A stretch of 11,131 bases of DNA from a virus. Made by a program: the position numbers and the translations under genes. Below, piece after piece: positions 3,342 to 9,979 of the stretch; the first letter of the stretch is position 1, and the number at the start of each line of letters is the position of its first letter. The stretch is from UHGV virus genome UHGV-0072311. One strand, 5' to 3'. The notes under the pieces are model-generated. The model was not told the origin of the DNA, searched no databases, and saw nothing but the letters and a program-made list of their open reading frames with translations.

Positions 3342-3503
3342 GACAACGCCCTCTGGTTGATGAATTTAACTATCACCACCGTCAGGTGCAAATCTTTGGG
3401 TGGTGAGACGTACAGGGTTTGCACTACCGGATCAACCAACCGGCGAGCCTTTCGGCTCCCCCATACGCCCCACCATAATTCAGATGTGCGTGTGCTTACG
3501 ACA

Positions 3504-3527
3504 ACAAAAAACACGCTCGCGGCGTGT
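3504..3527 (-). terminator. Intrinsic terminator on the - strand (ACACGC-CGCGA-GCGTGT then U5GUUGU)
   Basis: Seen in sequence: 6-bp stem 3511-3516/3522-3527, followed on the - strand by TTTTTGTTGT. It would stop - strand transcription that runs antisense through the + strand island before it reaches the ORF6N gene. Confidence 0.5.
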
Positions 3528-3609
3528 GTCTGTCGCGGTTGAATATCCGGGGTGCAAATCCCGACGCCAGATTTTGCTGGCGTGCGAAGAATATAATCCC
3601 GGATATGTG

Positions 3610-3650
3610 TTGTCGTCAACATACCTTGAATGTATATAACAAATTTGTTA
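3610..3650 (+). promoter_or_regulatory. Candidate promoter (TTGTCG, 17 bp, TATATA) and 14-bp perfect palindrome TAACAAATTTGTTA, a likely operator for the toxin-antitoxin operon
   Basis: Seen in sequence: -35-like TTGTCG at 3610-3615 and -10-like TATATA at 3633-3638. The perfect palindrome at 3637-3650 overlaps the -10 and the first toxin ATG, which is the usual layout for autoregulation by an HTH antitoxin. Confidence 0.4.
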
Positions 3651-3991
3651 TGTTTACTCTCATGAACTACATTATCGAATACTACAGTGACGAGGTTGAA
3701 GCTGAGATCCTTTCTCTTCCTGAGACCTTACAAGCCCGGTACATTCGGTACACGGAGAAAATGCGTATTTACGGAGCTAATCTTGGTTCCCCGCATACAG
3801 AGGCATTTGGCGACGGTTTGTTTGAAATCCGCCTTAAGGGCTCGGAAGGCATAGGGCGTGTTTTTTACTGCACGCTAAAAGGAAAGCGAATCATTATGTT
3901 GCATAGCTTTGTAAAGAAAACGCAAAAAACTCCACCTGCCGAGCTTAGAAAAGCTGAAACCAGAATGAAGGAGGTTAAGCATGACTGGTAA
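3650..3991 (+). CDS. Type II toxin, RelE/ParE superfamily (Gp49/HigB-like 'addiction module killer')
   Basis: The product carries the signature ...DGLFEIRLKG...GRVFYC...RIIMLHSFVKKTQKTPPAEL... typical of Gp49-like toxins. The toxin gene is upstream and its stop overlaps the antitoxin start by 11 bp. The start is uncertain between the ATG at 3650 and the in-frame ATG at 3662; neither has a clear SD. Confidence 0.75.
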   Translation: MFTLMNYIIEYYSDEVEAEILSLPETLQARYIRYTEKMRIYGANLGSPHTEAFGDGLFEIRLKGSEGIGRVFYCTLKGKRIIMLHSFVKKTQKTPPAELRKAETRMKEVKHDW

Positions 3992-4289
3992 ACGTACCCC
4001 ACCTACCATGACACACGATGAAATGGTAGAAAAAATGTTGTCTAACCCCGCAGTAAAAGCAGAATACGACGCCATCGCCGATGAATTCGCACTACTTGAT
4101 GAAATGCTGGCAGCACGAAAAGAAGCTGGCTTAACCCAGGCTGAAGTTGCTGAACGTATGGGAACAAAAGCGACTGCGATAACCAGAATGGAAAGCAATC
4201 TTGCATCAGGTACAAGCGGCCCATCATTTGCCACACTGAAAAAATTCGCCCGTGCTACAGGGAAAAAACTCCAGATCCGCTTCGTTTAA
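3981..4289 (+). CDS. HTH (XRE-type) antitoxin, HigA-like 'addiction module antidote'
   Basis: 102-aa product with the helix-turn-helix motif GLTQAEVAERMGTKATAITRME and a C-terminus ending LKKFARATGKKLQIRF, typical of antitoxins paired with Gp49/HigB-like toxins. A strong SD GGAGG lies 6 nt before the ATG. Confidence 0.8.
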   Translation: MTGKRTPPTMTHDEMVEKMLSNPAVKAEYDAIADEFALLDEMLAARKEAGLTQAEVAERMGTKATAITRMESNLASGTSGPSFATLKKFARATGKKLQIRFV

Positions 4290-5741: not shown

Positions 5742-6512
5742 TCACTTTGTTGTCGGTGAATGAACCGGAATATCAGCAATCGAACTGAAAATATCCCGGT
5801 GTTTATTCAGCTCCCGCAGCGCGGCGCAGACTCGCTCCCACTTCTGAACATCACTTTTCGCCCTGCGCAGCGCCAGGTTTGCCCTGCGCAGGGACGGAAA
5901 AATCAGCTCATCTGCTTGCGTTTCGGTAAACGATGGCAACGACTGCACAATGTCCGCCACAGTTTCTGTTTTAATTTCTTCCTGTGTTGCGGCTTCCCGG
6001 ACTGGTAACGCAGCACCTGCTGGCTGAGGAAAGGCCTTACCATCATTTTCCGTTACCGGCGCGGTTTTCGGATCTGCTGGTAAATTACCCCCCGGCATGC
6101 AGTAACGAAATTTACCGTTCTGATTAACGCGTGCCAGCCGCCCCGTTGCGGTTACCACCGCCAGCGTGGAAGCAACCTTGCGAGTGGTAACTCCGAACTT
6201 ACCCGCTATTTCTTCACAGGTTTTAGCCCCCTCCTGAGAGATAAACTCAATCATCATGTCAGCGCTAACTTTTGGAGCGACCTCTTCGGTCAGCATATCC
6301 TGTGTTTCAGATTTTACTGGCCGCTCTTCGGTTACCCCAGCTTCACCTTCGACAGCCAGAAACCAGGTGTGACCCGTTTTATCAACAACGCCATTTTTTT
6401 TGAGCTCCCACAGTTCGTTGAGAACTTCTTCACGGCTGATATCAAGCCGCGCCGCCAGTTCAACAGAATTGGCTTTTCCCATCGCTTTCAGTGCATGCAA
6501 TACGGTTTCCAT
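5742..6512 (-). CDS. Hypothetical protein with two winged-helix-like segments (256 aa)
   Basis: Two segments resemble wHTH recognition helices (SVELAARLDISREEVLNELWELKKNGVV and TCEEIAGKFGVTTRKVASTLAVVTATGRLARV). It lies immediately downstream of the DnaC-like gene with a 25-bp gap. I recognise no specific family. Confidence 0.55.
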   Translation of the reverse strand: METVLHALKAMGKANSVELAARLDISREEVLNELWELKKNGVVDKTGHTWFLAVEGEAGVTEERPVKSETQDMLTEEVAPKVSADMMIEFISQEGAKTCEEIAGKFGVTTRKVASTLAVVTATGRLARVNQNGKFRYCMPGGNLPADPKTAPVTENDGKAFPQPAGAALPVREAATQEEIKTETVADIVQSLPSFTETQADELIFPSLRRANLALRRAKSDVQKWERVCAALRELNKHRDIFSSIADIPVHSPTTK

Positions 6513-6537: not shown

Positions 6538-7278
6538 TCACATACCCTGACGTCCAACGTTTGACCGCCAGCTCTCCCAGTTAAAATTCACCCAACGACC
6601 ACCGTTCATGGTCATCCGGTCCATAATCCTCTCACCAAGAAGCGTGCTCATTGCGGCATGATTCAGGTTTGTCAGCATCCCGACACTGCGCAGTGATGCC
6701 GTCCGGCGGTCAACAATCTGGTGCAGTACCACCTGCTCGTTTTTCGTCTCACGCTGGATGCCAATTTCGTCAAGAACCAGGAGGTCCACTTCGCACAGTT
6801 CACGCAAAAATTTTTCCCCTGACAGTCCGTCGTCATAGCTGGCATGTAACGCGCTCATCACATCCGCCACGGTGACCACTATCACGGATTTACCGGCCTT
6901 CAGCAGACGATTACCCACAGCCGCCGCCAGATGATTTTTTCCGGTTCCCGGATTCCCGCTGAACACGAAGTTTGTATAACCGGTCATCAATTCATCGACA
7001 ATGGATTTCGCCTGGCTCAGAGCATGGCGCTGACCGTCGTTCTGCACCCGGTAGTTCCCGAATGAGCACTTCCTGTGAAGCGGCTGGATGCCCGAACGAT
7101 TCAGGATTTTTTCAACCCGCGTCTGGTGATTCTGGCGGTTAACTTCCTCGCTGCGCTTCCGGCCCTCAGCCAGTTGCCATTCCCGCCATTCGTCGGTCGT
7201 CCGGAACGGTGCTGCCACGTGCGGTGGTGCCAGACGGCGCACCCGTTCAAGAATCCCTCCTGTCGAAATGTTTTTCAT
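6538..7278 (-). CDS. DnaC-type replicative helicase loader (AAA+ ATPase, IstB-like)
   Basis: The product is closely similar along its length to my recollection of E. coli DnaC, including the Walker A motif GNPGTGKNHLAAAVG, the SGIQPLHRKCSFGNYRV region and the C-terminal MLTNLNHAAMSTLLGERIMDRM. SD GGGGG lies 8 nt upstream. Confidence 0.9.
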   Translation of the reverse strand: MKNISTGGILERVRRLAPPHVAAPFRTTDEWREWQLAEGRKRSEEVNRQNHQTRVEKILNRSGIQPLHRKCSFGNYRVQNDGQRHALSQAKSIVDELMTGYTNFVFSGNPGTGKNHLAAAVGNRLLKAGKSVIVVTVADVMSALHASYDDGLSGEKFLRELCEVDLLVLDEIGIQRETKNEQVVLHQIVDRRTASLRSVGMLTNLNHAAMSTLLGERIMDRMTMNGGRWVNFNWESWRSNVGRQGM

Positions 7279-7284
7279 GGCTGA

Positions 7285-8367
7285 TTACCCCCTGAAACCC
7301 GGCGGAATTTCGGTGTCCGGTTCAGAAATGTGATTCACGCAACGCAGGCTGACTGCGCCAGCCTTCGGCAGCGACCACGGATTTTCGAAATTCCTGTTCG
7401 GGCCAAAAAACGTCGATGCCTGCTGAACAAATTCAGTTCCCGCTTTCCCGGTAGCCTCCAGGTATCTTGCGTAACGCCTCACGCCATCCAGCACGACATC
7501 CGGTGACACCCCTTCGCGTAATCTGGCCCTCCAGGCATTGAACGCGGATTTCTTCGGGTTTGACCCTGCCCGATGCGGATATTCACGCCAGACCCGTTCG
7601 AACACGTCAGGATAATCAACTCGTCCCGCAGACGGTCCCGGCATCGCCCGGGTTAACCCAATCGGCTTCCCGCTCATCGCGGAATCGGCTTCAGGCTGCT
7701 GCGGTTGGCGTTGTTGCTCCGGTTCGACGATCAGCACCTGCTGCACACAACGCCCGGAATCTGCTTCCGGTGTCGTGCCATCTGGTCCTGGACGTTCAGT
7801 CAGAACAGGACAAAAATCCCCCTGTGGGTCCGTGGCGATTTTTTCGCCATGGACCAGAAGGGTTTTATCCCTTTCCTGTTCCTGTTCCTGTTCCTGTTCT
7901 TGGCTTGAAAGGGGCTCTGAAGGGGCTTCAATTTTCCGACATGATTCACGTCTGACATCCAGGTGGAAATCATCCTTATATCTATCATAAAAGGATGATA
8001 AAAAAGGATTTTCCAGCAACGCGGAATATTCATTTCTTACCCCAGCACAACGGTTATCGCCAGGTTTCAGCGATTCACCAACCTGCCATGCTGCCATTTC
8101 ATGCACCCATACAACCTCAGAATCATGGTCATAGCTGCAAAAACCAGCCTCGCAAGCCATTTGAAGCCCCTTAGAAGCCCCTTCAGGAGCAAGTCCGGTT
8201 TCGTGAGCAATGTACAAAACAGGCAGGTAATAAAGGCCCAGCATATTGGAATGAGGCGAGGTCATCATATACAACGCCACTACCATACATTCCGGACCAG
8301 ACTTCCTTAGTTTTCGCCCTGTATCGCCTAACCAGAACTGAGGTGAAATTGTTGCGTAATTACGCAT
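7285..8367 (-). CDS. Putative replication initiation / replisome-organiser protein (non-lambda-O type)
   Basis: The position (after the cII-like gene, directly before the DnaC-like loader with a 6-bp gap) matches the lambdoid O/P slot. The C-terminal motif FERVWREYPHRAGSNPKKSAFNAWRARL resembles the F..FW..YP.K..K..A..AW motif I recall from phage replication initiators. The gene contains an (EQ)n linker and AT-rich palindromic DNA. The family assignment is not verified. Confidence 0.6.
   Translation of the reverse strand: MRNYATISPQFWLGDTGRKLRKSGPECMVVALYMMTSPHSNMLGLYYLPVLYIAHETGLAPEGASKGLQMACEAGFCSYDHDSEVVWVHEMAAWQVGESLKPGDNRCAGVRNEYSALLENPFLSSFYDRYKDDFHLDVRRESCRKIEAPSEPLSSQEQEQEQEQERDKTLLVHGEKIATDPQGDFCPVLTERPGPDGTTPEADSGRCVQQVLIVEPEQQRQPQQPEADSAMSGKPIGLTRAMPGPSAGRVDYPDVFERVWREYPHRAGSNPKKSAFNAWRARLREGVSPDVVLDGVRRYARYLEATGKAGTEFVQQASTFFGPNRNFENPWSLPKAGAVSLRCVNHISEPDTEIPPGFRG
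7626..7718. repeat. Copy A of a ~70-bp direct repeat (copy B at 8398-8466); copy A carries a 23-bp internal insertion
   Basis: Seen in sequence: ccgcagacggtcccgg...aacccaatcggcttc...aggctgctgcggttgg(c/t)gttgttgct is shared at about 90 percent identity. Copy A lies inside the initiator coding sequence; copy B lies in the spacer upstream of it. Confidence 0.8.
7872..7899. repeat. Hexanucleotide microsatellite (CCTGTT)n, about 4.5 copies, encoding an (EQ)n linker on the - strand
   Basis: Seen in sequence: ttcctgttcctgttcctgttcctgttc at 7872-7899, translating to QEQEQEQEQE within the initiator protein. Confidence 0.9.
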
Positions 8368-8515
8368 AGTCCCCTCGCATACAAGATTTACTCCATACCG
8401 CAGACGGTCCCGGTATCTCCGGGATAACCCAATCGGCTTCAGGCTGCTGCGGTTGGTGTTGTTGCTGGCGAAATTCTTCCAGATGTGGCAGAATTATTCC
8501 CGTGTATTGCTCCAT
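8360..8515 (-). CDS. Small ORF (51 aa) between the cII-like gene and the initiator gene; possibly a remnant
   Basis: Translation is MEQYTGIILPHLEEFRQQQHQPQQPEADWVIPEIPGPSAVWSKSCMRGDYA. It spans repeat copy B, so part of the peptide mirrors residues inside the initiator. Its stop overlaps the initiator start and its SD is weak. It is below the ORF-track length cutoff. Confidence 0.3.
   Translation of the reverse strand: MEQYTGIILPHLEEFRQQQHQPQQPEADWVIPEIPGPSAVWSKSCMRGDYA
8398..8466. repeat. Copy B of the ~70-bp direct repeat (copy A at 7626-7718)
   Basis: See copy A. Copy B also contains the short palindrome CCCGG-TATCT-CCGGG. Confidence 0.8.
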
Positions 8516-8587
8516 GCCCTGCCTGAATATCAGATATTCATCAGGATTTGCTCAGAACGTCCGGCCCCAACCGGACGTTTTTTATTT
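8508..8587 (+). ncRNA. oop: oop-like antisense RNA overlapping the 3' end of the cII-like gene
   Basis: Seen in sequence: GGATTTGCTCAGAACG followed by a perfect 9-bp stem AACGTCCGG / CCCCAA / CCGGACGTT and TTTTTTATTTG at 8556-8587, with an upstream hairpin TGAATAT-CAG-ATATTCA at 8524-8540. Order and sequence closely resemble lambda oop RNA and its terminator as I recall them. The 5' end and promoter are not mapped. Confidence 0.6.
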
Positions 8588-8826
8588 GCATGAACGTTAA
8601 TGGCATGCTGGAAAGCCCGGCTGATCGGACTGATATCAGATGCCATCTGGAACGCGCATAAAATCGCCGCGATGTATCGCCAGTCGGTACGACTGACCTT
8701 CGATTCATGGCAGCCAATCATCTTTGCCAGTCCCCTTTGCGTCAGAGCTGACAGGTTGATGAGTAAATCTGTTTCTGCGCGATCAACGTCACGCTGTGAT
8801 AGTTTGCTGTAACTTGTTTGTGTCAT
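8530..8826 (-). CDS. cII: CII-family transcriptional activator (non-lambda allele)
   Basis: The position (first gene after cro/nutR) and the C-terminus ...ANKKRPVGAGRSEQILMNI resemble lambda CII (...TNKKRPAATERSEQIQMEF). The N-terminal two-thirds differ from lambda. An antisense oop-like terminator is embedded in the 3' end, as in lambda. Confidence 0.7.
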   Translation of the reverse strand: MTQTSYSKLSQRDVDRAETDLLINLSALTQRGLAKMIGCHESKVSRTDWRYIAAILCAFQMASDISPISRAFQHAINVHANKKRPVGAGRSEQILMNI

Positions 8827-8836
8827 TTCTTAATAT
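8804..8836 (+). promoter_or_regulatory. pRE-like promoter with a CII-box direct repeat (TTGC-N6-TTGT) and -10-like TAATAT
   Basis: Seen in sequence: TTGC (8804-8807), tgtaac, TTGT (8814-8817), then TAATAT at 8831-8836 followed by TTCC. This parallels lambda pRE (TTGC-N6-TTGC ... TAAGTAT TTCC), lies across the start of the cII-like gene and points toward cro and cI. Confidence 0.45.
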
Positions 8837-8911
8837 TTCCAATAGTGAATAGTTAGTTGAAAGGTATGCGTGGAAACGCATATGGCCTTAGTTGGTCAGA
8901 TATCTTGGGAC

Positions 8912-8964: not shown

Positions 8965-9165
8965 TTATGCAGTTGTTTTTTTGTTACTTGGGAAGGGCTT
9001 TATTTCTTCCGCATAAACGCTTCCATCAGCGTTTATAGTTAAAAAAATCTTTCGGCCTGCATGAATGGCCTTGTTAATCGCGCTTTGATATACGCCGAGA
9101 TCTTTAGCCGTCTTGGTTTGCCCAAAGCGTATTGCATAATCTTTCAGGGTTATGCGTTGTTCCAT
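8965..9165 (-). CDS. cro: Cro repressor (lambda-type)
   Basis: 66-aa product essentially identical to lambda Cro as recalled ([64 protein letters not shown]). SD AAGGAGG lies upstream. Confidence 0.95.

Positions 9166-9262: not shown

Positions 9263-9979
<717 letters not shown>

Follow-up and report, generated by a model that had tools for sequence, protein, structure and literature searches.

A short segment of the replication initiator gene of an "Eru4"-type Stx/lambdoid prophage is repeated in the spacer between cII and that gene. The spacer copy (copy B) is best explained as a non-coding paralogous duplicate of the linker-coding DNA of the initiator gene (copy A), which has since behaved as unstable repeat DNA, while the small open reading frame (ORF) that runs through it would be a by-product. 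We hold this reading at a probability of roughly two in three. The window, i.e., the whole stretch of 11,131 nucleotides of the virus genome UHGV-0072311 that was analysed, is the early-right region of such a prophage, in which cII, the spacer, the initiator and a DnaC-like loader follow one another in this order on the minus strand. The surroundings of the repeat are as follows.

5742-6512, minus strand, DUF1627
6538-7278, minus strand, DnaC/IstB-like loader
7285-8367, minus strand, replication initiator of 360 aa (phrog_1701, Eru4 type)
8530-8826, minus strand, cII (Pfam Phage_CII)
8965-9165, minus strand, cro
9218-9190, pR
9266-9979, plus strand, cI

Copy B is situated at the junction of the lambda-type cII/oop module with the non-lambda replication module. 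The nearest phage records, at 97-99% identity, are PhiR5_2, phiSTEC1589-Stx1c and the Shigella phages POCJ13 and 75/02 Stx. The last of these is also the reference phage of the Eru4 replication type, the replication proteins of which are unstudied, and nothing is known about the replication mode of Eru phages (PMC8951638). In the literature searched, the Eru4 type is named and the repeat is nowhere described. The Pfam search with the initiator, its halves and the small ORF returned nothing significant, and the names used for them come from PHROGs only.

The repeat and the ORF occupy the following positions.

7626..7718, minus strand, copy A, the full-length unit in the initiator gene, encoding the interdomain linker ...QQRQPQQPEADSAMSGKPIGLTRAMPGPSAG...
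7660..7682, minus strand, 23-bp subunit of copy A, composed of GAAGCCGATT and the palindrome CCGCGATGAGCGG, missing from copy B of the window
8398..8466, minus strand, copy B, the short-form unit in the cII-initiator spacer, located by repeat search and alignment
8360..8515, minus strand, 51-aa ORF with a truncated match to phrog_2751, its stop overlapping the initiator ATG at 8367

The original prediction, that a segment of about 70 bp from inside the initiator gene recurs in the spacer, holds on formal alignment. The gapped local alignment of the two copies contains 64 identical bases among 69 aligned, with gaps of 1 bp and 23 bp, and its score of 97 lies well above that of 500 shuffles (21.1 ± 3.1, maximum 36.5). 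The repeat search pairs 7626-7658 with 8398-8430, and 7683-7718 with 8431-8466 (97%). The copies are separated by 748-772 bp; both are GC-rich and have no AT-rich neighbour. The ORF exists in the ORF list as described, with its stop overlapping the initiator start, and the predicted echo between its peptide QQHQPQQPEAD and QQRQPQQPEAD of the initiator is present in the translations.

The larger gap requires a different description from the one it was first given. It had been read as an insertion in copy A that is itself a partial duplication. The partial duplication is there: the extra 23 bp consist of a second GAAGCCGATT (minus strand) and the 13-bp palindrome CCGCGATGAGCGG, and exact GAAGCCGATT is found at 7660, 7683 and 8431, with a one-mismatch version at 7758. 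The direction of the change is in doubt, because the 23 bp are retained in the spacer copies of related loci (L004, L097, P0005, P0010) and are present in all other linkers of the copy A module. Therefore, the difference is better read as a slippage deletion in copy B.

The part of the initiator from which the repeat is drawn appears suited to such changes. The protein consists of an N-domain, an (EQ)n stretch, a variable linker and a C-domain. Part of the region connecting the two domains is encoded by copy A; in an alignment of 25 protein sequences this region is rich in indels, and about 60 of its residues are missing from the Klebsiella homologues (302 aa). The C-domain begins at about aa 247 and is found widely in phage replication proteins from many hosts, and the N-domain has its own relatives, a set distinct from those of the C-domain. 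The linker and C-domain form a module fused to at least three unrelated N-domains: the type of the window (marked by AAGGGGCTT), the Tritos type (CGTGAC) and the P0127 type. The window and Tritos alleles differ by a -1 and a +1 indel, so that about 40 linker bases are read in different frames (MSGKPIGLTRAMPGP versus IQREADRVVPENTGQ), and the DNA of this stretch is still 75-81% identical. The 24-bp subunit of GAAGCCGATT plus hairpin is itself present or absent across Tritos-type alleles. Such indels, frame differences and variable subunit content indicate that the linker is a tolerant, slippage-prone stretch.

The spacer copy has a much narrower distribution than the linker. In the survey, relatives of the N-domain were encoded at 80 IMG/VR loci. 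In 31 of these the N-domain is near-identical, and each has one or two spacer copies. None was found in the 32 loci with a 78-80% identical N-domain, which have a Tritos-type linker and a different cII context, and the remaining, more distant loci (17/80) lack this linker altogether. A spacer copy was also looked for upstream of Tritos-type and P0127-type genes, and none was present. By this distribution, copy B is a lineage-specific paralogous duplicate.

Within the lineage, the spacer is highly variable. The number of copies in close relatives ranges from one to three, the 23-bp subunit may be present or absent, and a 16-bp minisatellite comprises 0, 2 or 5 units. The following spacer alleles were distinguished.

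148/149 bp, one copy
239 bp, the commonest allele, two copies about 91 bp apart and two 16-bp TGTGCAGTCACACCAA units, yielding a 72-aa ORF
262 bp, the 23-bp subunit kept in the first copy
287 bp, five 16-bp units
Three-copy arrays in TOE17 and 23CRST047, the latter with a 113-bp period and the 23-bp subunit in each copy

The one-copy allele of the window equals an L016-like two-copy allele (the GGGTTATCCC variant) minus 91 bp, and its copy B is the hybrid single copy left by this deletion relative to the common two-copy allele. The crossover point differs in the L018-type one-copy allele, so the loss to one copy occurred more than once. The locus was found in 81 of 5426 complete E. coli genomes; in 60 of these 81, about 46 are two-copy, 9 one-copy and 3 three-copy, and 2 are deletions. 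Every intact locus seen, including a lineage about 5% divergent, has at least one spacer copy. This universal presence could mean selection; the loss of the last copy would need an illegitimate deletion, and would be rare anyway.

The dispersed copies also exchange sequence with each other. In L097, a rare GATGCCGATT variant and the 23-bp subunit are common to copy A and all three spacer copies, and in L005, L042 and L043 the gene and spacer copies share mosaic variants. Paralogous copies sharing such lineage-specific variants point to gene conversion. The most direct example of exchange is L094 (E. coli SW071611), an exact recombinant of copy B and copy A, in which the spacer copy is fused to the distal part of copy A and the whole initiator N-domain is deleted; the RefSeq annotation of the product is a frameshifted pseudogene with a missing N-terminus. 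This deletion, with removal of the initiator N-domain, was seen in two E. coli genomes. All the features by which a segmental duplication would be recognised are found here: significant similarity, absence at orthologous loci, copy-number polymorphism, a recombinant between the copies and shared variants. The alignments thereby present the spacer copy as a live recombination substrate. A further observation speaks against a neutral repeat: copy B persists even though it is hazardous, as the deletion between the copies kills the initiator.

The history suggested by these data has several steps. We infer both the timing and the mechanism of the original duplication: the linker DNA of copy A would have been copied into the spacer between cII and the initiator in a single Eru4-type Stx/lambdoid prophage lineage, most likely on the occasion of joining the replication module to the lambda-type cII/oop module. 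Slippage or unequal exchange between the GAAGCCGATT subrepeats, and between the tandem spacer units, would then change the copy number, and gene conversion would maintain the similarity of the spacer copies to the gene copy. When copy B recombines with copy A, the N-domain of the initiator is lost, and the probable origin with it. The small ORF would start in the pO/oop region and enter the duplicated linker codons, as a by-product of the reading frame. A cis-acting function is not needed to explain the data, and none is supported.

An alternative is that the repeat unit is a functional cis element retained at two places, either a binding array or a structured DNA or RNA made of GAAGCCGATT repeats and GC hairpins, with possible roles in the modulation of pO/oop, in the translation of the initiator from the pR transcript or in replication, e.g., as a secondary loading or priming site. 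We regard it as unlikely. In its favour are the conservation of the unit itself and the presence of a spacer copy in all intact loci. Short GC stems (CCCGG...CCGGG and CCGC...GCGG) are kept in all units, across copy A, the spacer copies and the Tritos-type and P0127-type linkers, while the loops are variable, and two changes in the closing stem, each on one side only, would still allow G-U pairs to form in the sense RNA. The linker DNA is identical between module types at 78 of 96 positions (81%) versus 34 of 50 fourfold sites (68%) of the adjacent C-domain, a difference which is suggestive, not decisive; the out-of-frame linker segment is identical at 30 of 40. The folding energy of copy B in the sense strand also departs from shuffles (z = -2.2; antisense -1.6), but copy A folds no better than they do (-0.3 and +0.6, respectively). 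There are no compensatory double changes in RNAalifold over 14 distinct units (0/20 pairs, covariation term about 0), and Rfam at a permissive threshold gave no family in 7200-8900. A structured RNA element was rejected on the copy A fold, the lack of compensatory pairs and the Rfam result. A check by eye for cII sites (TTGC-N6-TTGC) and DnaA boxes in the unit revealed spacings and sequences that do not fit. The variation described above also counts against a cis element: prophages that are nearly identical differ freely in the number of copies, in the subunits these contain and in their distances from the initiator ATG and from pO. Relatives that share the initiator family and the linker do without a spacer copy altogether.

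The original prediction proposed two more specific forms of such a function, namely initiator-binding sites and the pO region. The first of them is not supported, as the same linker unit is found with three unrelated N-domains, and conserved iteron-like AAGGGGCTT repeats are located elsewhere in the gene. The linker units are unlikely to be iterons: they form no short phased array, are GC-rich, have no AT-rich neighbour and do not co-vary with the N-domain, so by its composition and arrangement the repeat unit would not be an origin site. Exact AAGGGGCTT occurs in the window only in the initiator gene, in the part that codes for the N-domain, as two inverted clusters with an 11-bp period around an AT-rich stretch.

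7909..7931, iteron-like cluster 2, AAGGGGCT twice, inverted relative to cluster 1
7960-8010, AT-rich stretch between the iteron-like clusters
8161..8186, plus strand, iteron-like cluster 1, GAAGCCCCTT twice, outside the repeat

The same paired AAGGGGCTT clusters, with the 11-bp period and a distance of some 255 bp, recur in phages of Klebsiella, Acinetobacter and E. coli, the N-domains of which are only 54-72% identical; in Tritos, which has a different N-domain, CGTGAC clusters take the corresponding place. Because they track the N-domain and flank the AT-rich stretch, the AAGGGGCTT clusters are the likely iterons of the Eru4 initiator family.

The second proposal was partly right. An oop homologue is present next to copy B.

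8529..8584, plus strand, 3' part of an oop-like antisense RNA with an intrinsic terminator (stem 8554-8581), by alignment to lambda

This segment aligns with nucleotides 22-77 of lambda oop (41/55 identical, score 58 versus 15 ± 2.8). By the same alignment, the oop start would be near 8502, and copy B ends at 8466, about 35 nt upstream, where it would abut the predicted pO at its -35 region, a proximity in favour of a cis element. The neighbourhood is therefore that of pO as proposed, but copy B itself is placed just upstream of the oop-like unit and outside its conserved part. Scans of the spacer in its one-copy and two-copy alleles for consensus sigma-70 promoters and terminators found only pR and the oop terminator, i.e., none in the spacer, which again argues against a cis role.

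In a stronger version, the unit of GAAGCCGATT plus hairpin would be a selected cis element of the linker and C-domain module, from which the Eru4 lineage recruited upstream copies to regulate replication or the pO/oop-cII circuit. Such recruitment seems quite improbable to us. If true, the unit would be a secondary site for protein binding or for priming/loading, or an mRNA element by which the synthesis of the initiator is adjusted, and its copy number would be a tunable switch.

The original prediction had also offered a recombination scar, understood as the remnant 5' end of a displaced replication gene. In the broad sense the scar is supported, with a lineage-specific duplicate at a module junction that serves as a live recombination substrate. 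Taken literally, copy B and the small ORF would be the 5' end and linker of an earlier replication gene, displaced by the present N-domain cassette. This reading has its attractions. The ORF starts where lambda O starts relative to cII and oop; the linker and C-domain module has been exchanged among at least three N-domain types, which makes the linker a recombination joint; and the natural recombinant L094 demonstrates that the two arrangements interconvert by deletion. The difficulty is that only about 50 unique bases precede copy B, and nearly the whole older N-domain must also have been lost. These bases have no match outside the lineage in the phage collection or among 5.8 billion proteins, and their similarity to the 5' end of lambda O is weak and not colinear (score 25 versus 15 ± 2.8, a value reached by 2 of 500 shuffles). 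No gene starting with MEQYTG... (MEQYTGIILPHLEEF...) and running into a full initiator or C-domain is found among the 10 protein matches, the sole fusion being the L094 pseudogene. In sequence, the spacer copies resemble the resident copy A much more than they resemble other linker alleles, as would be expected if they arose within the genome or underwent conversion. The literal remnant, which we likewise judge unlikely, accounts for the data no better, and perhaps less well, than an ectopic duplication of some 97 bp of copy A with later slippage and conversion.

The small ORF deserves separate consideration, as several phage records list it and it makes up a PHROG family. Its start is located in the oop/pO region. 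In the window it covers positions 1-39 of the 72-position phrog_2751 profile (E = 2e-25), and the 72-aa two-copy allele matches this profile in full. The family appears to be confined to this lineage: the six records matched by tblastn in the phage collection all belong to it, the 10 matches among 5.8 billion proteins are all alleles of the 51-aa ORF, and neither search returned a homologue from outside. The homologues are 38, 42, 46, 51, 58, 62, 72, 76 or 88 aa long, their 3' ends use three frames, and the distance from the stop to the initiator ATG varies across alleles. The first 28 codons are present in all alleles, but the distinct substitutions within them are all nonsynonymous (7/7, in a small sample, with about 19% synonymous expected by chance). 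Because its homologues are limited to the lineage, its length, frame and stop are variable and all its substitutions are nonsynonymous, the ORF does not behave as a conserved gene. A conserved independent small gene without an internal copy had been named beforehand as evidence against the duplication; the ORF occurs only where the internal copy exists. To judge from these alleles, the 51-aa ORF is probably not a gene, and the same probably applies to the "hypothetical protein" (phrog_2751) between cII and the initiator in Eru4-type Stx phages. That the ORF is a real gene, the peptide of which would mimic the initiator linker, e.g., to compete for a linker partner, is very improbable: the stop in the window would permit translational coupling, but the divergent L097 locus has no annotated ORF, and the echoed linker is itself translated in another frame in Tritos-type genes.

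With copy B read as a duplicate of linker DNA, the practical value lies mainly in annotation and in the understanding of prophage decay. The repeats destabilise the replication module, and the natural deletion of the N-domain and probable origin is one route to defective prophages. More useful than the repeat itself is a location for the probable origin iterons: in the Eru4 initiator family, which is unstudied, they would lie within the N-domain coding region.

Several known systems can be compared with this locus. The first is lambda oop/pO, with which the window agrees in that 8529-8584 (plus strand) aligns, has a terminator and keeps the same geometry relative to the cII end. The difference is that the repeat is upstream of the predicted pO and outside the oop unit, and that no consensus promoter was found. 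The second comprises the lambda ori iterons in the O gene, which are likewise repeats within the DNA for the interdomain linker of an initiator and likewise differ in copy number between related phages. Unlike them, the repeat unit is GC-rich, shows no co-variation with the DNA-binding domain and lacks an AT-rich neighbour, and the iteron-like repeats of the Eru4 family are the AAGGGGCTT clusters in the N-domain coding part.

The third comparison concerns the mosaic joints of lambdoid phages, at which modules are exchanged through short sequences that they share, whether between genes or inside them. The linker and C-domain, found with at least three unrelated N-domains, and the duplicate at the border of the cII/oop and Eru4 modules resemble such joints. 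The mosaicism of Stx phages and the Eru replication types are treated in PMC8951638. The locus differs from such joints in that the joint sequence itself has been duplicated ectopically and then tandemly amplified, and its copies now flank the N-domain/origin cassette as direct repeats, an arrangement for which no description was found in the literature. The last comparison is with VNTR-like loci and concerted evolution, which share with the spacer its copy-number alleles, the slippage of subunits, the variants common to paralogues and the natural deletion between dispersed copies. Here, however, one copy is coding, within a tolerant linker, the other is intergenic, and the product of the deletion inactivates the replication initiator of the prophage.

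Two clusters of iteron-like AAGGGGCTT(C) repeats, with a period of 11 bp, lie about 250 bp apart within the part of the replication initiator gene which encodes its N-domain. Their positions in the window and in three related loci, each in its own coordinates, are as follows.

Window: 7909-7931 and 8161-8186, with an AT-rich stretch at 7960-8010 in between
L011: 2181-2203 and 2436-2458
L012: 1955-1987, 2174-2206 and 2439-2473
L013: 2178-2205 and 2445-2472

The clusters are kept in phages of Klebsiella, Acinetobacter, and E. coli, despite an N-domain identity of only 54-72%, and they probably constitute the origin of the Eru4-type replication module.

In the related locus L094 (2160-2640, E. 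coli SW071611), as in SW07163, the DNA from the spacer copy of the repeat to the copy inside the gene has been lost naturally. This deletion takes out the initiator N-domain together with the iteron clusters, leaving a frameshifted pseudogene which adjoins an intact cII and a DnaC-like gene.

Between the N-domain and the linker, the initiator carries an (EQ)n stretch encoded by a run of the GAACAG hexanucleotide (window 7868-7900, minus strand). The length of this run differs among near-identical relatives, the initiators of which have 358, 360, 362, or 366 aa. The linker itself differs between the window-type and Tritos-type alleles by a compensated frameshift, -1 and then +1 (window 7626-7700 versus 2860-2960 of L003); over around 40 bases the two alleles use different reading frames, yet their DNA is still about 75% identical.

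In the spacer between cII and the initiator gene, tandem units are separated by a 16-bp minisatellite, TGTGCAGTCACACCAA in the gene orientation, found at 4255-4286 of L001 and also in the L008 spacer. It is absent from the window (0 units), present in 2 units in most alleles, and in 5 in L008. The 3′ end of cII contains an antisense RNA homologous to the 3′ two thirds of lambda oop, terminator included (window 8529-8584, plus strand); no consensus pO promoter was detected upstream of it.

Two overlapping ORFs of 155 and 102 aa occupy 3524-4289 on the plus strand. In the phage PhiR5_2 the annotation of the second one is antitoxin HigA, which suggests a toxin-antitoxin pair. Matches to Rfam families in the window, on the minus strand, are as follows.

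3396-3480, minus: C4 antisense RNA, above the gathering score
3506-3583, minus: IsrK, above the gathering score
163-368, minus: STnc100, above the gathering score
3544-3596, minus: c4 target a1b1, score just under the threshold

Taken together, these matches suggest a control region for immunity or an antirepressor, downstream of the replication genes, which resembles the C4 system of P1/P7.
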